This document shows positions 3,070 through 62,534 of a DNA stretch of 64,000 nt, piece by piece (the stretch's first letter is position 1; every line of letters starts with the position of its first letter). The notes under the pieces are model-generated. The model did no database searches. It saw nothing but the letters and a program-made list of their open reading frames with translations, and was not told the origin of the DNA. Made by a program: the position numbers and the translations under genes. The DNA comes from Clostridia bacterium (GTDB lineage Bacteria > Bacillota > Clostridia > Oscillospirales > CAG-272), in NCBI GenBank assembly GCA_017938205.1, contig JAGBCA010000014.1:25231-89230 (forward strand), in the 5' to 3' direction.

Positions 3070-3804
3070 ATGTATCTTGATAAATGCTTCCCTCGCGAGA
3101 TCGAGGCGGCAAAGAAGAACAAGACACCCGTGGTGCTGGTTGGCGGCACGGTGGAATACCACGGACCGCACTGCTCCTACGGCTGTGACACGCTCGTAGC
3201 GCAGGGACTGCTTGAAAAGCTCGCAGAAAAGAAGGATATCATCATTGCGCCCTCGATCAGCTATTCCCCTGCAAGCTGGGCCGTTGGCGGTGACACGAGC
3301 GGCACGGTTCATGTGGACGAGGTGGTTTTCGAGGAGTACGTATTCAACGTATTTATGTCGATGCTCTCTGCGGGACTGCGCAATATTTACGTGCTGATCC
3401 ACCATCAGTTTGAGCAGGAAAGCCTGATGCCGATGACGCTTTCCTATATGAAGGCGGCCAAGAGAGCTACCATGCGCTACCTTGAAAAGACCAAGGGCCA
3501 GGGCTGGTGGGGCTCCGAGAGCTATGCGGATTACTACGAGAACCTTGAGACCGACGATAACCCCTTTGCCTGGATCAAGGTGATCCCCACGATGAGCACA
3601 GAGGTGCAGAATGCGACCGGATACGATCACGCGGGCAAGTTTGAGTGCTCGATCCTGATGTCGCTCTACCCCGAGGCGGTTACGCTTGAAAGACTTCCCG
3701 AGATCAAGCATTGGTTTACCGAGAGCGCAAAGGAAGCGAACAAGGAGCTTGGCGACGAGATGGTGCGCCGCTCGCTCGAATATCTTGAAAAAGCCATCGT
3801 TTAA
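3070..3804 (+). CDS. Creatininase family amidohydrolase
   Basis: GTVEYHGPHCSYGCD (ExHGxH...D metal motif) and DHAGKFECS (HAGxxET/S). Confidence 0.85.
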   Translation: MYLDKCFPREIEAAKKNKTPVVLVGGTVEYHGPHCSYGCDTLVAQGLLEKLAEKKDIIIAPSISYSPASWAVGGDTSGTVHVDEVVFEEYVFNVFMSMLSAGLRNIYVLIHHQFEQESLMPMTLSYMKAAKRATMRYLEKTKGQGWWGSESYADYYENLETDDNPFAWIKVIPTMSTEVQNATGYDHAGKFECSILMSLYPEAVTLERLPEIKHWFTESAKEANKELGDEMVRRSLEYLEKAIV

Positions 3805-3813
3805 TTGGTTTTT

Positions 3814-3831
3814 TGCAAAGAATTGTTTGCA
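3814..3831. repeat. 18-bp near-palindrome TGCAAAGAATTGTTTGCA (copy 1 of 4)
   Basis: Read directly, 10 bp after the creatininase stop codon. Related copies at 26576, 36680 and 61160. Confidence 0.7.
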
Positions 3832-3837
3832 TATAAC

Positions 3838-3868
3838 AAAAAATCCCGACAAAATGTCGGGATTTTTT
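3838..3868. terminator. Bidirectional intrinsic terminator
   Basis: AAAAAATCCCGACA-aaa-TGTCGGGATTTTTT between convergent genes. Confidence 0.85.
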
Positions 3869-26002: not shown

Positions 26003-26998
26003 ATGATATACAGGACACCGAAATATACGAAATCCTTCCAATGCACGGCAGACAAATGCCGCGACAGCTGCTGCATCGGTTGGGAGATCACCGTGGATGC
26101 AAGAACGCTTGCAAAATACAAGAGAATGCGCGGCGCACTCGGAGAGGATATAAGGAAAAGCCTTTCGCCCGACGGGTGCTTTTTGCTCGGAGAGAATATG
26201 CGATGCCCGCACCTGCTTAAAAACGGGCTTTGCCGCATCATCTGCGAAAAGGGAGATGCGGCACTTTGCGACATTTGCCGCGAGCATCCGAGATTTTATA
26301 ATTATTATGGCGATCTTTGCGAATGGGGCGTTGGGCTTGCCTGTGAGAGCGCGGCGCAGCTGATCCTCTCGGCAAAGGCGCCGCTTGCCTTCGAAGAGGA
26401 GGAAAAAGAGGGGGAGGTCGAGGACTGCGACGAGGCGCTCCTTTCCCTGCTTTTCTCGGAGAGAGAGAAAATGCTTGCGTTTGCTTTGGATGAAAAACGC
26501 GGCCTTTCGGAAAAGCTCTTTATTCTTGAATCATGGGCGGAAGATCTGCAGGAATTTATTGATAATGCGGATATATGCAAAGAATTGTTTGTATTTTGTG
26601 CAGAAAATCAAGATATTCAGTCATTTTTCACCGAAGATAGATTTGCAAAATATAGAAAAATCATTTTATCGCTTGAGCCGCTTTCAGAGCTTTGGACGGC
26701 ACGGTGCGAGAACGTTTCTTTGCCGATCCATACAGACGAAAACGGCGCGATCTTTTCACGCCTTTTGGCATATTTTATTTTCCGATATTTCCTATCCTCC
26801 GCGATGGAGGGAGATTGCACGGCGGGCATGGGGCTTGCTCTCTTCTCTGCCGCGTGGATCTTGGCGATTTGCGAAAGCGAGGGACGGACAACTCTCGAAG
26901 GGATCGCGGAGGCGGCGAAGGATTTTTCCAAGGAAGCAGAATACAGCGAAGACAACCGCGATGCGGTATTAGAGGCCTTTTCTGCGTTCAACGGATAG
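26003..26998 (+). CDS. fliB: FliB-like (flagellin lysine-N-methylase family) protein
   Basis: FQCTADKCRDSCCIGWEITVD, CPHL..GLC, CDICREHPR, LACE, SKEAEYS. Confidence 0.8.
   Translation: MIYRTPKYTKSFQCTADKCRDSCCIGWEITVDARTLAKYKRMRGALGEDIRKSLSPDGCFLLGENMRCPHLLKNGLCRIICEKGDAALCDICREHPRFYNYYGDLCEWGVGLACESAAQLILSAKAPLAFEEEEKEGEVEDCDEALLSLLFSEREKMLAFALDEKRGLSEKLFILESWAEDLQEFIDNADICKELFVFCAENQDIQSFFTEDRFAKYRKIILSLEPLSELWTARCENVSLPIHTDENGAIFSRLLAYFIFRYFLSSAMEGDCTAGMGLALFSAAWILAICESEGRTTLEGIAEAAKDFSKEAEYSEDNRDAVLEAFSAFNG
26576..26593. repeat. 18-bp near-palindrome TGCAAAGAATTGTTTGTA (copy 2 of 4), intragenic
   Basis: 17/18 identical to the copy at 3814; lies in an AT-rich patch of the FliB-like gene. 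Confidence 0.55.
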
Positions 26999-36097: not shown

Positions 36098-36667
36098 TTA
36101 CACCTCCGCCTCCTCCTCGTGGCGAGGAAGCGTAACGAAGCGATAGGTATGCTTCGTATCCGGCAGAATTTTTTCCAGAAGATCCGCCATGGAAATGCGG
36201 AGACTGGAGGTATTGATGCAGGGATGCATACCGATGCTCTCGGCATCCTTCAGCTCATCGTCGATCAAAACGCTGACTGCGCATTCGTGATCGTTATAAA
36301 GTCCAAGCGGTGAGAGTGAGCCCGGCGTAATGTCCAAAAGCTTTTCCATAAAGCGTCCGTCTGCAAACGAAAGCCTGGAAACACCGAGAAATGCGGAGAG
36401 ATCCTTGGTTTTGAATCTCTTGTCTCCCGGCATCAGGAGAAGATAAAACGCCGTGCTTTGCCGATTGGTCAGAAAAAGATTCTTACAAATGGATGCACCA
36501 AGAACCGCATCGATCTGCCCACACAGCTCCATCGTTTCTGCGGCCGCATGATCCACCCGATCGTATGTGATGTGGAGCGCATCAAGGCGCTGATACGTTT
36601 TTATCTCCTTTGGGATCCTTGCCGAAAGATCCGTCGGCGCTCCTTGTTCAAGTTTTAAATACGACAT
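36098..36667 (-). CDS. YbaK/ProX-like prolyl-tRNA editing protein
   Basis: CKNLFL, SRLSFA, PGSLSPLGL, HPCINTSSL. Confidence 0.88.
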   Translation of the reverse strand: MSYLKLEQGAPTDLSARIPKEIKTYQRLDALHITYDRVDHAAAETMELCGQIDAVLGASICKNLFLTNRQSTAFYLLLMPGDKRFKTKDLSAFLGVSRLSFADGRFMEKLLDITPGSLSPLGLYNDHECAVSVLIDDELKDAESIGMHPCINTSSLRISMADLLEKILPDTKHTYRFVTLPRHEEEAEV

Positions 36668-36679
36668 TATCAATCAATA

Positions 36680-36697
36680 TGCAAATAATTGTTTGCT
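36680..36697. repeat. 18-bp near-palindrome TGCAAATAATTGTTTGCT (copy 3 of 4)
   Basis: Directly abuts the stop codon of the NfnB/GltA gene, in the 30-bp gap before the ProX-like gene. Confidence 0.65.
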
Positions 36698-38119
36698 TTA
36701 TTTACTTTTCAGATAGTCATCAATGGCCTTTGCGGCTACCTTGCCTGCCCCCATTGCGGAGATAACGGTTGCCGCTCCGGTAACGGCATCGCCGCCCGCG
36801 TACACGCCATCCTTGGTGGTCTTCCCCGTTGCTTCCTCAACGATGATACCACCGTGACGGTTCACCTCGAGACCTGCGGTGGTTGCCTTGATCAAGGGGT
36901 TCGGGGAGGTACCGATGGACATGATCACGGTATCCACGTCCAGCACGAACTCACTGCCCTCCACGGCAATGGGACGGCGGCGACCGCGCTCATCCGGCTC
37001 GCCGAGCTCCATGCGGATGCACTTCATGCCGCTGACAAAGCCGTTTTTGGGATCTCTCTTATCCTCGGGATTCTCATAGCCGAGGATCTCTACGGGATTG
37101 CAGAGCAGACGGAACTCAATTCCCTCCTCCTCTGCGTGCTCAACCTCCTCGCGGCGCGCGGGAAGCTCATCCATTGAGCGGCGGTATACGATATACACCT
37201 TCTCCGCGCCGAGACGTAAAGCGGTTCTCGCGGCATCCATTGCCACGTTTCCGCCGCCCACAACGGCAACACGGCCGCCCTTCATAATGGGGGTGTTGGG
37301 ATCGTCGCGGTAAGCCTTCATAAGATTGCTTCTTGTAAGAAACTCGTTGGCAGAATACACACCCTTCAAGCTCTCGCCGGGGATGCCCATAAAGTTCGGC
37401 AGACCTGCGCCCGAGCCGATAAACACAGCCTCAAAGCCCATGCCGAAGAGCTCGTCCACGGTGAGGGTCTTGCCGATGATCATATTGGTCATGATCTCAA
37501 CACCCATGGCCTTAAGGTTATCGACCTCCTTCTGCACGATAGCCTTTGGCAGGCGAAACTCCGGAATGCCGTATACGAGAACGCCGCCTGCGGTATGCAA
37601 TGCCTCAAACACGGTGACCTCGTAGCCGAGAAGCGCAAGATCGGATGCACAGGTCAGACCCGAGGGGCCGGAGCCTACGATGGCAACCTTATGGCCGTTT
37701 TTCGGTGCGGTCTTCGGCACGTTGTCGGAATGGGCATTATGATAATCCGCTACGAATCGCTCAAGACGGCCGATGCCAACGGGCTCACCCTTGATACCGC
37801 GCACGCACTTCGCCTCGCACTGCGTTTCCTGCGGGCAAACACGGCCGCATACGGCGGGAAGCCCCGAGGTTTTATGTATGATCTCATACGCACCCTCAAA
37901 ATCCCCTTCCTTGATCCTCTCGATGAAGGCAGGGATATGAATGTTTACGGGACAGCCCGCAACGCAGGGCATATTCTTGCAGTTCAGGCAACGGAGTGCC
38001 TCGTCGATCGCCATTTCCTCGGTATAACCCAAGGCGACCTCGTCAAAATTTCTTGCACGCACCAAAGGCTCCTGGGTTGGCATGGGATTCTTTTTCAGAC
38101 TCATATTCGGCTTTGCCAT
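36698..38119 (-). CDS. nfnB: NfnB/GltA-type flavoprotein subunit of electron-bifurcating transhydrogenase (often annotated NADPH-dependent glutamate synthase)
   Basis: RCLNCKNMPCVAGCP, CGRVCPQETQCE, GSGPSG, YGIPEFRLPK, GGGNVAMD, GGDAVTG; adjacent to nfnA. Confidence 0.85.
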   Translation of the reverse strand: MAKPNMSLKKNPMPTQEPLVRARNFDEVALGYTEEMAIDEALRCLNCKNMPCVAGCPVNIHIPAFIERIKEGDFEGAYEIIHKTSGLPAVCGRVCPQETQCEAKCVRGIKGEPVGIGRLERFVADYHNAHSDNVPKTAPKNGHKVAIVGSGPSGLTCASDLALLGYEVTVFEALHTAGGVLVYGIPEFRLPKAIVQKEVDNLKAMGVEIMTNMIIGKTLTVDELFGMGFEAVFIGSGAGLPNFMGIPGESLKGVYSANEFLTRSNLMKAYRDDPNTPIMKGGRVAVVGGGNVAMDAARTALRLGAEKVYIVYRRSMDELPARREEVEHAEEEGIEFRLLCNPVEILGYENPEDKRDPKNGFVSGMKCIRMELGEPDERGRRRPIAVEGSEFVLDVDTVIMSIGTSPNPLIKATTAGLEVNRHGGIIVEEATGKTTKDGVYAGGDAVTGAATVISAMGAGKVAAKAIDDYLKSK

Positions 38120-48046: not shown

Positions 48047-48877
48047 ATGAAGGCTATCAACGAATCCGTTAATAAGGCTGATTACAGTTATCCTTATATC
48101 GGGATCGGAACCGATTTTGAAAACAATCCTTTGCATTTTCATAAAGAACTTGAAATTTTATACGTTTTAAGCGGCGCGATCGATGCCACGGTGGATGGTG
48201 AGCACCGCGAATTAAAATCGGGAGATATCTGTGTGGTTTTGCCGGGACAGGTGCATGCCCTCTTACAAATAGGACAAATTCAGCTCTTGGTATTAAAGCT
48301 TTTGCCCGCAACTCCGATCCACGGCGTGCATCTTGATTCTTTTGTTTATTCCGAGGATTCGCCCCATTACGGCGCGCTTTTCGCACCGCTTGAGACAATA
48401 CGCCGCGAGGATGCGGAGCGGACACTTGGCTACGCTTTAGCCGTGCAGAACGCTTGCGGCGAATTAACGCTTTACATTCTTCGCACGCTTGCTTCGCAGA
48501 CAGCCGCCTCGAAAAATCAGATGCGTTCCTTTGATCTTTATTTTTTCAAAAAAGCCTGCGCTTTTATCGAAGAAAACTATGAAAACGATATTTCCCTTGA
48601 TCGCGTTTCTTCCTATTTCGGCTATTCGCGCGCGTACTTTTCCCGTCTTTTCAAGGCGGTTTGCGGCATGAATTTCTTTGATTATCTTGCGCTATTCCGC
48701 CTCAAGAAAAGCATCGTGCTATTGAGAGAAGCCGATCGCTCCATCGAGAGCATTGCCTTTTGCTGCGGATACAACTGTCTGCGCTCCTATAACCGCGCGT
48801 TTCTCCGCCATTTCGGGCAGAGCCCTGGGAGCTACCGCCGCCGTTTTTTACAAATCACACAGAATACAAGCATATAA
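48047..48877 (+). CDS. AraC family transcriptional regulator
   Basis: LHFHKELEI cupin; YFSRLFK...CGYNCLRSYNRAF...SPGSYR. Confidence 0.92.
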   Translation: MKAINESVNKADYSYPYIGIGTDFENNPLHFHKELEILYVLSGAIDATVDGEHRELKSGDICVVLPGQVHALLQIGQIQLLVLKLLPATPIHGVHLDSFVYSEDSPHYGALFAPLETIRREDAERTLGYALAVQNACGELTLYILRTLASQTAASKNQMRSFDLYFFKKACAFIEENYENDISLDRVSSYFGYSRAYFSRLFKAVCGMNFFDYLALFRLKKSIVLLREADRSIESIAFCCGYNCLRSYNRAFLRHFGQSPGSYRRRFLQITQNTSI

Positions 48878-58365: not shown

Positions 58366-58401
58366 CAAAAGCGCACCTAACGCATAGGCGCATTCAAGAC
58401 A

Positions 58402-58560
58402 CGATAGCTCTCCACTTGCGTGACAGTGCGCAGCATATTTTGCTGCACCCCAGCAAGACTGCCGCGGAAACGGCCGCCTCACTTCGGCAATGCTCCCTTT
58501 CCTCCCCGACTCTTTTCCGCGACTCCGGAGACTACTGATGAGCAATGCGCCTCTACCTGA
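58402..58560 (-). ncRNA. Lysine riboswitch (L-box)
   Basis: Minus strand GGTAGAGGCGC...AGTA...GAAAGG...GCCGAA...CTGGG...AATA...ACTGTC...GGAGAGCTATC, with kissing-loop complement CGCGGAAA/TTTCCGCG. Confidence 0.93.
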
Positions 58561-58576
58561 TTTCTTTATTACACCC

Positions 58577-58605: not shown

Positions 58606-58764
58606 CAATTTCTTTGTATTTTGTTTGATTTCTCTTTATTTCTTTCTATTTTTCCTTAGGTGTTGATTTTTTCGCCCATTTGCACTATAATAATCTTATA
58701 AAACCATGAAGGCACGGTTTCTTTCAAAGACATCTTGCCTTTTATTCACGAAAGGGATCAACCG

Positions 58765-61158
58765 ATGAAACTGTTGTGCAATTCGAAGGGACACCTTTTT
58801 TCTAAGGAAGTTTTTAAGAACCCGCCAAACGAATATGCGCCAACCTTTGCCTGGAGCTGGAACGAGCCGATCACCCGCGAGGGGATCGACAAGCAGCTGG
58901 GCGAATTTTTCGAGGTTGGCATACGCTCGCTTTATATTCTCCCCCTGCCTAAGGAATTTCGTCCCGCACTGATGGCCACAACGCTTTCACCCGAATACCT
59001 TTCTAAGGAGTTTTTCGATCTTGTTTCCTACGCGATCCGAAAAGCGAAAGACATGGGCATGATGCTATGGCTCTACGACGAGGGAGGCTGGCCTTCGGGC
59101 GGTGCGTGCGGCAATACGTATAAGCAGAACAAGGATGCGGCAACCGAGATCCTTCACAAGAGAGACATCGCGCTTTCGGCGGGCGAATGCTACCTTGCAA
59201 GCGAGGGTACGATTGCGACCTTTCTTGGCAAAACGCGTGTTTTTGACGGATACAAAGCGGAAAAATGCGTTTCTTTGACCGAATTTTATACCGTTACCAC
59301 CGTTTCGGGCCCCAACCTCATTGATAATTTAACCCCCTCCGTCATCGAGACCTTTATTGAAAATACATACGAGGCATACGCCAAGGCAGTGGGCGATCTG
59401 TTCGGAGATAGCGTGAAGCTGATCTTTACGGACGAGCCGATGCAGCTTGCGCACTCGATCCCCAAAAGCTTTTTTGAGACATTCAAAAAGGAATACGGAT
59501 ACGATCTGTGCGATCATCTTTATGCGGTGCTTGATGAATATTCGGACGATCCCGAGATCCACCGCGTACGTATCGACTATGTACGGCTGCTCGGCAAGAC
59601 GTTCCGTGAGATCTGCTTTGGTCGGCTCGCGAACTTTTGCGAGGAGCACGGCGTTTGCTTCGGCGGACATCTGAACCTTGAGCACGTGCCGGACGGCGGC
59701 GCAAGAATGAGTTATTTCTCGGCGCTGGATTGCCTACGAAAATTCCACGTTCCCGGCATTGACGCGATCTGGGATCAGATCTGGTATCCCTACGATGAGA
59801 CAACACCCGTGCCCGAGGGATCGCTCTTCTTCCCTCGCATCGCACCTTCGGCGGCAAGGCAGATGGGGCGCGATCTTGCACTCACAGAAACGGGATCGGT
59901 CTCAAGCGAGAGCTTTTATCCCGACGTCATGCGCTACGTTCTCAATTATCAGGCGGTGCGCGGCATCAACGTTTTCAACCTGATGGCACTTCCCTACGGA
60001 AGAAAAAATCTCTCCGCGCTCGTATTCCGCCCGATGTACTGTCCCGAAAAGCCCGGCTTTTATCACCTCACGGCGGTGAACGAATATCTGTCGCGACTTG
60101 CATATCTTACACGGCTCGGTGAAGCCGTTGGAGACACGGCACTATACCATCCGTCAGCCGACTTCTGCGCTTCGGCCATGCATTCCACGCTTGCAACGCG
60201 TGCTTATAACCACGAAGGCGCGATATTGGAGGATAAACACGTTTGGTTTGATCTGATCGACGATGAGGGCATCCGCGCGGCGAAGGAAACCGCGGACGGG
60301 CTTGCGCTCGGCGATGCCGTTTACAGGCACATCGTTGTTCCGAAATGCGAATATATGCCAAAGGATGTAGCAGAAAAGATTAAAAAATACATCGGCGAGG
60401 GCGATCCGCTTCTGCCGCTTCACGATCCTGCGATCCGCGTGATGATCCGCCGTCTTGGAGAGGATGCACTTTGGTTTTTCTTCAACGGGAAAGCAGAGAT
60501 CGCAACCGACAGCGTTCCTATCCCCCATGGAAAGCACGCCTACCGCTTGGATGCATATCACGGGCAGATCCTTTCCTGCAAGGGGGAGACACTTTCGCTC
60601 TCGATCGAATGCGGGGACATGGCGATCTATCTTGTTACGGACAAGGCACTCCCTACCGACGATCTTTCTCCTGTATGGCGCAAAGCGGTGAAGGATCTTA
60701 CATCCGTTTCGATGCGAAAATTCAGCGTTGTCGAGGGTGGGATGAAAAGCGAAATTTTGCCTGTGCCCGAAGCGCTTGCGCACGATATTTCCGCAGATAT
60801 TACGTATAAGGCGGAGGTTTCGCTCCCCGCAGAGCCAAGGGCAGGCGAAGTATACCGCTTGACTCTGACGGACACACAATATTATGCAAAAGTGTGCACA
60901 GAGGAAGAAACGCTTGGCGTTTTCGCATTCACGCCAATGGTTGCCTTCGTGGATGGCGGAAAGTTAAAGAAGGATATGGTTTTGACTGTGACGGTTTCAA
61001 ACTCCGCCTCGGGTGAGATCGCGAAAAAGCGTTCCATGATCGAGGATCACTATCCCGACCATCTGAAGGGGCCTTATGCAAAAAGAAAAATGTATGCATT
61101 GGAAACGCGGTTTTCACCGCCCCATCTCGGAACACTTGTTATTGAAAAAATGGGTTAA
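58765..61158 (+). CDS. GH106-like glycoside hydrolase
   Basis: FAWSWN, EYLSKEFF, WLYDEGGWPSGGACG, IFTDEP, PGIDAIW, PSAARQMG, LTE. Confidence 0.75.
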   Translation: MKLLCNSKGHLFSKEVFKNPPNEYAPTFAWSWNEPITREGIDKQLGEFFEVGIRSLYILPLPKEFRPALMATTLSPEYLSKEFFDLVSYAIRKAKDMGMMLWLYDEGGWPSGGACGNTYKQNKDAATEILHKRDIALSAGECYLASEGTIATFLGKTRVFDGYKAEKCVSLTEFYTVTTVSGPNLIDNLTPSVIETFIENTYEAYAKAVGDLFGDSVKLIFTDEPMQLAHSIPKSFFETFKKEYGYDLCDHLYAVLDEYSDDPEIHRVRIDYVRLLGKTFREICFGRLANFCEEHGVCFGGHLNLEHVPDGGARMSYFSALDCLRKFHVPGIDAIWDQIWYPYDETTPVPEGSLFFPRIAPSAARQMGRDLALTETGSVSSESFYPDVMRYVLNYQAVRGINVFNLMALPYGRKNLSALVFRPMYCPEKPGFYHLTAVNEYLSRLAYLTRLGEAVGDTALYHPSADFCASAMHSTLATRAYNHEGAILEDKHVWFDLIDDEGIRAAKETADGLALGDAVYRHIVVPKCEYMPKDVAEKIKKYIGEGDPLLPLHDPAIRVMIRRLGEDALWFFFNGKAEIATDSVPIPHGKHAYRLDAYHGQILSCKGETLSLSIECGDMAIYLVTDKALPTDDLSPVWRKAVKDLTSVSMRKFSVVEGGMKSEILPVPEALAHDISADITYKAEVSLPAEPRAGEVYRLTLTDTQYYAKVCTEEETLGVFAFTPMVAFVDGGKLKKDMVLTVTVSNSASGEIAKKRSMIEDHYPDHLKGPYAKRKMYALETRFSPPHLGTLVIEKMG

Positions 61159-61159
61159 A

Positions 61160-61177
61160 TGCAAATAATTGTTTGCA
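61160..61177. repeat. 18-bp near-palindrome TGCAAATAATTGTTTGCA (copy 4 of 4)
   Basis: Starts 2 bp after the GH106-like stop codon, just before the terminator hairpin. Confidence 0.7.
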
Positions 61178-61227: not shown

Positions 61228-62421
61228 TTACCAATAAAGCTCCCAATCGGGATTTAAGAAACGCATCAGCGCTTCCATATAGAAGTAGTCGCCCCATGTG
61301 TTCAGCTCGTGAATACCAAGGTTTCCTGCCTTATAATAGGTTGCGCATTTAAGCAGTCCGTCCGATTCGGGAATATCCTTGGTCAGATAATTATCGATCA
61401 GAGAATTCATGATTCTCTTCGCGGCGTTGTAGAATATCTGCTTATAGGGATCGGAATCATCCATATACTTATAAGCCTCCAGCATACCGCAGATCGCGCA
61501 GGATGCGGCAGAGGAGTCACGGGGCTCAACGTCTCCCTCCGTGAACCAGAGATCCCAATAAGCAACGTAGTCCTCGGGAAGCTGGTTAAGGAAATATGCC
61601 GTCGTAGCCTTGAAGGTATCGATGGACTTCTGATCGTGCTTATACTTATAGGTAAGCATCGGGCCGTAGATGCCCCACGCCTGACCGCGCGACCAAGCAC
61701 TGTCGTCACTGAGGCCCTGCTTGGTAACACCGCGAAGCGGCTCGTGTGTATTCACGTCAAAGTAATAGGTCTGGTATGTGCTTCCGTCCGCACGGCAACA
61801 AACCTCAACAGCGGTCTGGAAGTGATTGTACGCAGCCTCGGCATACTTCGGATCCCCCGTCTGCTCGGTTGCCCAATACAGAAGCGGAATGTTGAGGAGG
61901 CAGTCGATGATCAGGCGGTAGGATGCAGGATCGCCTACATCGCCCCAAGCCTGGATAAACTTACCCTTCTCGCTATAGCGCGTCATGAGATGATCGGCAG
62001 CCATCAAAGCAGCCTCTTTCGCCTTCTCGTTTCCGCAAAGCTTATAGGCGGCAACGCAGGAGGGCGTATAGATGAAGCCCATATCGTGATGGTTGACAGC
62101 GATTTTCTCCACGATTCTCGTGTGCATGGAATCGATAAAGGAAAGGGCATGCTCCTTATATTTCTCTTCCCCGGTCAACTCGTATGCAAGCCAGACCATG
62201 CCCGGCCAAAAGCCCGAGCCCCAACCCGTATTGCCGTGACGCTCGTATACGTAATTTTTGCTCGTGGAAGCAGGATAGCTTTCGGGGGTGAAGCTTGCAA
62301 GACCGATGTCGATCTTCTTCAGAGCCTCCTTCAGAGCGTATTCCAGCTTTTCTCTGGGAAGGTCAAAATCTGCATATTTTGCAGGATCCTTAATTTTTTG
62401 CGGCTTTGGAATCATTTTCAT
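61228..62421 (-). CDS. GH88 unsaturated glucuronyl hydrolase
   Basis: WGSGFWPG, HHDMGF, IIDCLLN, WSRGQAWGIYG, RDSSAA, WGDYFYMEAL. Confidence 0.92.
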   Translation of the reverse strand: MKMIPKPQKIKDPAKYADFDLPREKLEYALKEALKKIDIGLASFTPESYPASTSKNYVYERHGNTGWGSGFWPGMVWLAYELTGEEKYKEHALSFIDSMHTRIVEKIAVNHHDMGFIYTPSCVAAYKLCGNEKAKEAALMAADHLMTRYSEKGKFIQAWGDVGDPASYRLIIDCLLNIPLLYWATEQTGDPKYAEAAYNHFQTAVEVCCRADGSTYQTYYFDVNTHEPLRGVTKQGLSDDSAWSRGQAWGIYGPMLTYKYKHDQKSIDTFKATTAYFLNQLPEDYVAYWDLWFTEGDVEPRDSSAASCAICGMLEAYKYMDDSDPYKQIFYNAAKRIMNSLIDNYLTKDIPESDGLLKCATYYKAGNLGIHELNTWGDYFYMEALMRFLNPDWELYW

Positions 62422-62534
62422 TCTCCTTATTAAATGCAAATGCATAATACGCTTTCATTTTAGCATATCAGACGAAAAAAGTCAAGAAAAGCGAGGATTT
62501 TCAAGAAAAAACCTTTTTTGCATCTTCTCCTTTT

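Follow-up and report, generated by a model that had tools for sequence, protein, structure and literature searches.

An 18-bp palindrome with A/T-rich flanks, TGCAAAYAATTRTTTGCA, recurs across the genome of an uncultured member of the Clostridia, and we give a probability of roughly 0.5 to the reading that it is a genome-wide, selected site on duplex DNA for a putative symmetric dimer, whose binding we infer from sequence patterns. The palindrome is symmetric (a true palindrome in the consensus of 44 sites oriented by their upstream gene) and has a fixed spacing, it is enriched over background and placed mostly in non-coding DNA at gene 3' ends, it is conserved between related genomes, and its abundance differs from lineage to lineage.

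The window, i.e., the whole stretch of 64,000 nt that was analysed, is C3:25231-89230 of assembly G000 (2.356 Mb in 73 contigs, 51% G+C, 84% complete), and its closest named records are MAGs obtained from animal guts and labelled as uncultured Clostridia, Eubacteriales or Oscillospiraceae. The gene set of G000 (1,864 genes) comes from a crude ORF-based call with starts refined by ribosome-binding site, so single assignments of a site to a gene can be wrong. Two motif patterns were used, the pattern with N positions of the first-pass annotation (N-pattern) and a refined version with Y and R positions, TGCAAAYAATTRTTTGCA (Y/R pattern). The genus was surveyed in 201 sampled genomes, including G000, at a threshold of at most two mismatches.

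The first-pass annotation had reported four copies in the window, three of them within 10 bp after a stop codon and one inside a gene, with two of the former lying between convergent genes beside a separate terminator. A scan of the window recovered all four, and each was found in the context described (Table 1; the two between convergent genes are copies 1 and 4). Flanking genes include sigG and spoIIE. The hairpin beside copy 1 looks like an intrinsic terminator and is common to two convergent genes, creatininase-like and queG-like; at the place orthologous to copy 1, the related genomes G045 and G061 have a degenerate copy of the motif. The gene that follows copy 3 on the minus strand (36098-36532) starts 147 nt farther on, and copy 4 precedes a terminator hairpin with a T-run (-15.5 kcal/mol, beginning 26 nt after the motif start). 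The doubtful match at 48118 has two mismatches to the N-pattern and three to the Y/R pattern. We also note that G061 and G045 encode the creatininase-like protein with 98% identity, as compared to about 77-81% identity to G000 for the flanking DNA of these two genomes, which suggests recent exchange or strong constraint. The lysine riboswitch, which closely precedes the region of the 807-aa gene, is on the minus strand and hence regulates a gene to its left.

Table 1. Motif copies and other features of the window, with features of other contigs of G000 (positions without a contig name are those of the window).
Feature	Position or length	Strand	Context
Motif copy 1, TGCAAAGAATTGTTTGCA	3814..3831		9 nt after the stop codon of a creatininase-like gene, 3070-3804 (+)
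Terminator-like hairpin with T-run, by copy 1	3838..3868	+	14 pairs, 5 of them G-C; -21.1 kcal/mol
Motif copy 2, TGCAAAGAATTGTTTGTA, 1 mismatch	26576..26593		Intragenic, ORF 26003-26998 (+), frame 0, C-K-E-L-F-V
Motif copy 3, TGCAAATAATTGTTTGCT, 1 mismatch	36680..36697		0 nt after the stop codon of a gltD-like gene, 36698-38119 (-)
Weak match, doubtful, TGAAAACAATCCTTTGCA	48118..48135		About 71 nt inside an ORF
Lysine riboswitch (RF00168)	58397..58563	-	95.5 bits
Motif copy 4, TGCAAATAATTGTTTGCA, exact	61160..61177		1 nt after the stop codon of an 807-aa gene, 58735-61158 (+)
Gene convergent to the 807-aa gene	61228..62445	-
Four perfect canonical parS	C38:79811-80481		Within 700 bp, beside the ParB_N gene
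ParB_N gene	C38:81975-82250		The only one in G000
Site-free contig C21	145 kb		49.6% G+C
Site-free contig C44	118 kb		47.1% G+C
Site-free contig C12	65 kb		45.0% G+C
Contig-end sequences (two families together)	C7:5739, C10:22941, C41:14880, C42:32019, C51:25065, C68:15271; also C19:28, C49:33968, C50:7163, C55:32116		At or near contig ends

The first-pass annotation had taken the palindrome for a dispersed site, to be recognised by an excess over background in a genome-wide scan, and such an excess is found. In the window, five matches to the N-pattern with at most two mismatches compare with 0.06 expected (the largest count in 100 dinucleotide shuffles was 1). Over the whole of G000 the N-pattern has 13 exact, 20 one-mismatch, 64 two-mismatch and 82 three-mismatch sites, and the Y/R pattern has 6, 20, 45 and 65, respectively, which gives a total of 71 sites within two mismatches of TGCAAAYAATTRTTTGCA against 0 for the reversed-pattern control. 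The spacing between the half-sites is fixed: TGCAAA-N6-TTTGCA occurs 36 times, as compared to 7 times with N5 and at most 4 times with other spacings, and the relaxed TGNAAA-N6-TTTNCA occurs 109 times, as compared to 9-25 times with spacers of 2, 4, 5, 7 or 8. When hexamer inverted repeats of all kinds with spacers of 0-12 are counted in G000, no other specific family reaches the count of the motif family. Other over-represented inverted repeats in this genome are GGTGTAC-N4-GTACACC (12-14 copies), GAAATTC-N3-GAATTTC (17), AAAACC-N3-GGTTTT (19) and GAAAAC-N5-GTTTTC (20). No extra half-sites in helical phase were found near the motif in G000, and apparent 'everted' or 'direct' repeats near it turned out to be its TT/AA flanks or unrelated repeats of contig ends. 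At or near contig ends, G000 has two families of near-identical sequences (Table 1), probably insertion sequences or other multi-copy elements at which the assembly broke.

Sites are found predominantly at gene ends, and the pattern described for the window copies thus extends to the genome: 51 of the 71 sites lie in 3' non-coding DNA, 33 of them in tandem spacers (7.0% of genome bases) and 18 in convergent spacers (2.0% of genome bases); 2 more are in divergent spacers (3.9% of genome bases), and 18 are genic or other (the rest of the genome). Divergent spacers hold 2 of the 53 intergenic sites against a 30% share of the bases (P=1.6e-6 for depletion), which agrees with the earlier statement that the motif is mostly not in promoter position. 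Sites per gene 3' end are alike for convergent (18/544) and tandem (33/1049) ends. The distance between the motif and the facing stop codon is mostly 0-19 nt; the stop is no more than 14 nt away for 76% of sites, where uniform placement would give 43%, and for 64% of those in long spacers, where it would give 11%, and none of 5,000 simulations came up to what was observed. The adjoining stop codon is TAA in 31 of 46 cases against 62% genome-wide, which is not significant; stop-codon use is ordinary, and TAA as an insertion target was rejected. Among the 46 oriented sites, 16 have the order stop-motif-RBS-start and 11 the order stop-motif-terminator, in 5 the motif makes up the tip of a longer terminator hairpin, and a crude terminator scan left 14 unclassified; a motif following a terminator was seen by eye in one case only (C7:4356). 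An 'inert niche' does not fully account for this preference for places before or inside terminators over places after them, which counts against our main reading in its present form and hints at a need to be transcribed. The 104 genes that flank sites are unrelated in function (sites lie at junctions such as gyrB|gyrA, greA|lysS, proA|proC and nifU|mnmA, and the motif is also found downstream of polA, alaS, rny and glycosidase genes), so the set does not look like a metabolic regulon; a regulon of the flanking genes was rejected for lack of functional coherence.

Copies inside genes are enriched as well. In 1.89 Mb of coding DNA (30 nt at gene ends excluded) there are 15 sites with at most two mismatches and 41 with at most three, as compared to means of 0.6 and 3.5 (maxima 4 and 6) in 40 synonymous-codon shuffles, i.e., intragenic sites are about 24 times commoner than in the shuffled genes. 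The 15 sites occupy all three frames, in genes encoding up to 1,489 aa, and this excess indicates that the word is favoured at the nucleotide level even where the DNA codes for protein. In frame 0 the motif encodes C-K-E-L-F-A/V, as in window copy 2 and in an endonuclease-III-like (nth-like) gene at C53:102466; in the latter, the motif stretch is identical between G000 and G212 over about 38 nt.

According to the survey of the genus, 173 of 201 genomes contain at least one site with at most two mismatches (counts 0-71; controls 0-1), with the highest counts in G000 (71), G179 (63), G212 (60), G061 (59) and G153 (53); in 16 genomes of other families of the order there are 0-1 sites at no more than one mismatch. 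Three relatives (G045, G061 and G212) are about 75-82% identical to G000 in the flanking, mostly coding DNA, and many sites are kept at orthologous places, so the conservation in related genomes by which the first-pass annotation proposed to check the motif is borne out: 6 of 8 syntenic sites of G045 have a copy with at most two mismatches in G000, and so have 5 of the 10 G212 sites compared (6 of 10 at up to three mismatches). In seven intergenic G000/G045 pairs, 101 of 126 motif columns are identical as compared to 475 of 989 other spacer columns; the motif itself had led to four of these pairs, and the three unbiased pairs have 36 of 54 columns identical. The motif is intact at C56:13922 and C7:4356, where the terminators next to it have changed in sequence. 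Some sites decay fast, e.g. window copy 1 has four mismatches in G045 and the gyrB|gyrA site has four in a MAG with 99% GyrA identity, and this counts against the reading as a selected duplex-DNA site.

Two junctions illustrate gains. At greA|lysS, a locus for which the records listed comprise DNA contigs from gut metagenomes and no RNA, the order stop-motif-RBS is found in G000, G212, G179 and G045; the motif is missing from the junctions of G186, G016, G019 and G021, which are 4-15 nt long, and from that of the motif-rich G153, which is 70 nt long. The gyrB|gyrA junction is a tight TAA-GGAGG-ATG in most of 80 MAGs, and the motif is present in the two closest only. In both cases the motif lies within about 25-30 extra nt that are absent from the outgroups; a copying mechanism would be the simpler explanation there, which counts against the reading as a selected duplex-DNA site. 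A second clade (L139, L140, L144, L175, L187, L195) has a gyrB|gyrA insert of its own with a TGGAAAGAAAnGTTTACA-like word, TGNAAA-N6-TTTACA-like and of the same 6-6-6 architecture as the motif, which may represent a dialect of the motif or have been gained independently. Ten G212/G000 comparisons gave no clean indel and no target duplication, and one intragenic site of G212 aligns without gaps to a motif-free G000 stretch of equal length, which implies gain by substitution and not insertion. We found no different palindrome in the same role in 388 kb of a motif-free relative (G075).

The palindrome might instead work as RNA. A short A/U-rich hairpin in 3' UTRs and intercistronic spacers, if recognised by an RNA-binding protein or RNase and used to tune how mRNA is degraded, processed or translated close to the stop codon, would account for the tight closeness of the copies to stop codons, for their rarity in untranscribed divergent spacers and for the finding that nearly all non-coding copies lie in transcribed DNA (16 + 11 + 5 of the 46 oriented sites); REP hairpins within about 15 nt of the stop codon in E. 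coli are a comparable case. We nevertheless consider such an RNA element unlikely. The half-site types C, T and A at pair 3/16 combine as under independence, and these positions show 11 non-complementary double changes against 5 complementary ones; when 46 sites are oriented by upstream gene, their sense strands show no preference for G.U (8) over A.C (15), with other mismatches in 34 of 322 pairs; and mismatches are alike in the stop-proximal (32) and distal (36) halves, so that no asymmetry relative to the direction of transcription is seen, though the statistical power of these covariation and strand tests is modest. Predicted RNA hairpins are weak (-4.2 to -7.4 kcal/mol, z-scores -0.9 to -2.1), no Rfam 15 family matches at the motif sites (the lysine riboswitch is the sole match in the window), and the enrichment inside genes in all frames also speaks against an RNA element. 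The weak folding also upholds the earlier judgement that the motif is not a terminator stem: the G+C-rich stem and the T-run of an intrinsic terminator are both missing. Independent half-sites, lack of pairing covariation, lack of strand asymmetry, weak hairpins and the lack of an Rfam family together favour a symmetric dimer on duplex DNA. Hardly credible to us is an internal promoter, in which one strand of the palindrome would serve as an extended -10-like TGC-AAAYAAT element driving the downstream cistron. It would fit the 16 of 33 tandem sites that end 11-30 nt before the next start codon, but both halves are equally conserved in either direction, 18 sites face no downstream gene (convergent neighbours), the oriented matrix has no -35 signal and no promoter-like site was called around copy 1.

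REP-like repeats come close to the motif in placement. REP/BIME (REPIN) elements are, like the motif, short extragenic palindromes in tens to hundreds of copies, found in transcribed spacers within operons and at operon ends, near stops and rarely in promoters, with a lineage-dependent copy number and with copies kept at orthologous places. The motif might accordingly be a selfish or relic repeat, i.e., a miniature palindrome copied to gene ends by a mobilising enzyme and tolerated with little function, and its REP-like placement, its variable copy number (0-71), the extra nucleotides around it at greA|lysS and gyrB|gyrA (where outgroup junctions have 4-15 nt) and the similar gyrB|gyrA insert of the second clade speak for this origin. 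We regard it as rather unlikely all the same. The motif is an A/T-rich, near-perfect palindrome of 18 bp, whereas REPs of Proteobacteria are G+C-rich, imperfect and 20-40 bp long; its copies are singletons and not pairs, it lacks hairpin covariation (REP-like stem pairing is not maintained), it is enriched inside genes and more conserved than its flanks, one intragenic copy arose by substitution, and the G212/G000 comparisons gave no clean indel. No cognate enzyme is seen either: PF01797 (Y1/RAYT) has no match in G000 (84% complete), Y1_Tnp is absent also from G212, G153, G132, G186 and G045, and its occurrence in 66 of 201 genomes, among them the motif-free G019, G022, G076, G143, G156, G184, G195 and G206, is unrelated to motif count. 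A link to RAYT or IS200 was therefore rejected, and so was a phage origin, since 2.9 million viral contigs contain only 14 single exact matches, a count that also speaks against a mobile repeat. A very improbable reading, already largely refuted, is that the motif is the operator of a CcpA/LacI-type global regulator, a fixed-spacer relative of cre-var acting as a transcriptional roadblock. The reported cre-var is the CcpA site of solventogenic clostridia, TGTAAA-Yx-TTTACA with a flexible spacer, with about 100 sites per genome and a core that CcpA binds in Clostridium acetobutylicum (PMC5263246). In the literature searched, its core TGTAAA/TTTACA is the nearest motif: both motifs have inverted 6-bp half-sites around an A/T-rich spacer, the TG(C/T/A)AAA half-sites of our motif resemble the cre-var core, and T, which cre-var has at position 3, is our second or third choice there. 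The likeness ends with the spacer, which in our motif is fixed at 6 with conserved content, and with the location, after stops and beside housekeeping genes and not in promoters. The canonical cre consensus has 13 matches in G000, 12 of them genic, which is the background level; this is in line with the earlier remark that the motif does not match cre, and at the same time makes a non-canonical CcpA site conceivable. A reader of this type does not accompany the sites, and the genus has hardly any LacI-family proteins: G000 has a single LacI-family HTH gene, adjoining a glycosidase gene, and of the 200 other genomes 6 have an orthologue of it (at least 60% identity), G127 with its 1 motif among them; none was found in the motif-rich G212, G153, G132, G158 and G186. 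A LacI/CcpA reader was rejected.

Other candidate readers fared no better. As the first-pass annotation had said, the motif is neither parS nor the Noc NBS: G000 has one ParB-like gene, four canonical parS (perfect matches to the 16-bp consensus) lie elsewhere, on C38 (Table 1), and the 14-bp NBS consensus has no match in G000 at up to one mismatch. With no sequence match and no ParB paralogue, a reader of the ParB or Noc kind was rejected. Noc NBS, SlmA SBS and ParB parS have dyad symmetry, are 14-18 bp long and are read by dimeric HTH proteins; like the motif, they occur in tens to about 100 dispersed copies in coding and non-coding DNA and function independently of their neighbours. Their sequences are unrelated to the motif, and they are not known to prefer gene ends. 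DUS and USS of Neisseriaceae and Pasteurellaceae mark the own genome, are frequent at gene ends and in terminators and are enriched within genes. They resemble the motif in being over-represented, kept across the genus and located at gene ends or terminators as well as in genes, and they differ in being 9-12 bp long, not palindromic and about 10-20 times denser; Firmicutes are not known to take up DNA in a sequence-specific way. With TT/AA flanks, the 8 outer bases of the motif give TTTGCAAA, which PrpR/RamB boxes of Actinobacteria reportedly contain; those regulators (XRE-HTH with an M78-like domain) act at few promoters, unlike the motif, and a reader of their kind was rejected as Peptidase_M78 (PF06114) has no match in the incomplete G000. 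An XRE gene beside site C14:2776 was also rejected, being sporadic (36 of 201 genomes only; G212, G179, G061 and G045 are not among the matches listed). No reader protein thus emerged among the LacI-family, site-adjoining XRE, ParB-paralogue and PrpR/RamB-like candidates. No report of the motif was found in the literature on its 8-mer, on cre-var or on REP in Clostridia.

The sites are spread unevenly over the contigs. Three large contigs (C21, C44 and C12, together 327 kb of lower-G+C DNA, 45-49.6%) have zero sites in 138 eligible 3'-end slots (post hoc P ~5e-4). These contigs are native, as judged by their housekeeping genes (era, recO, pnp, gltX, cmk, rpsA-like, ftsH, tilS) and synteny, with counterparts in relatives at 74-84% identity, and the matching contigs of G153 (its C5 and C9) have one site and none, among the 50 listed of its 53 sites. 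Slots in the lowest fifth of local G+C carry sites in 1.5% of cases as compared to 3-8% elsewhere (overall rank test P=0.12). In this assembly, fragmented into 73 contigs, the site-free DNA may represent a chromosome domain. On C38, the G+C skew switches near 100 kb, as does the orientation of the genes, and gyrB-gyrA is at 88-93 kb; together with parS, this looks like the replication origin region. A search for dif with an 11-mer arm gave 20 matches at one mismatch, none of them convincing.

The first-pass annotation had proposed a site for a dimeric protein, and this part gains support from the dyad symmetry, the fixed spacing, the independent decay of half-sites and the absence of strand asymmetry; a nucleoid-organising, segregation or roadblock role can still only be inferred. 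If the motif is a duplex-DNA site of this kind, each subunit of the putative homodimer would read one TG(C>T,A)AAA half-site, and the conserved A/T core (YAATTR), probably with a narrow, bendable minor groove, would hold the half-sites at a fixed distance. Selection would keep roughly 70-140 sites spread over the chromosome, and these would collect where an 18-bp protein-bound palindrome harms least, i.e., in the transcribed stretch from stop to RBS or from stop to terminator; they would be excluded from promoter regions and be rarer, though still enriched, inside genes. The most likely role would be chromosome-wide (nucleoid organisation or occlusion, or marking of the own DNA), and a possible alternative is a local roadblock or insulator at gene ends that limits read-through or the spread of supercoils.

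Where a DNA word is dispersed and under selection, machinery that reads the whole chromosome is usually behind it (e.g. parS, NBS, SBS, matS, Chi, KOPS, DUS and REP). The word described here is abundant, tied to gene ends and conserved across a wide clade of uncultured Clostridia of animal guts, and it is a practical marker for the 3' ends of genes and for operon junctions of these MAGs. Since it matches no reader tested, its binder would define a new nucleoid or insulator protein, or a RAYT-free REP-like system of Firmicutes. Its uneven spread over contigs may inform on chromosome domains. A more specific version, to which we give a low probability, is that the motif is the address of a new nucleoid-organising or occlusion-type protein in an Oscillospirales lineage with one ParB and no Noc, with about 100 sites in transcribed gene ends and with site-poor domains of several hundred kb that are shared between species. 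If this is true, the motif could be a handle on chromosome organisation or cell division in non-Bacillus Firmicutes.
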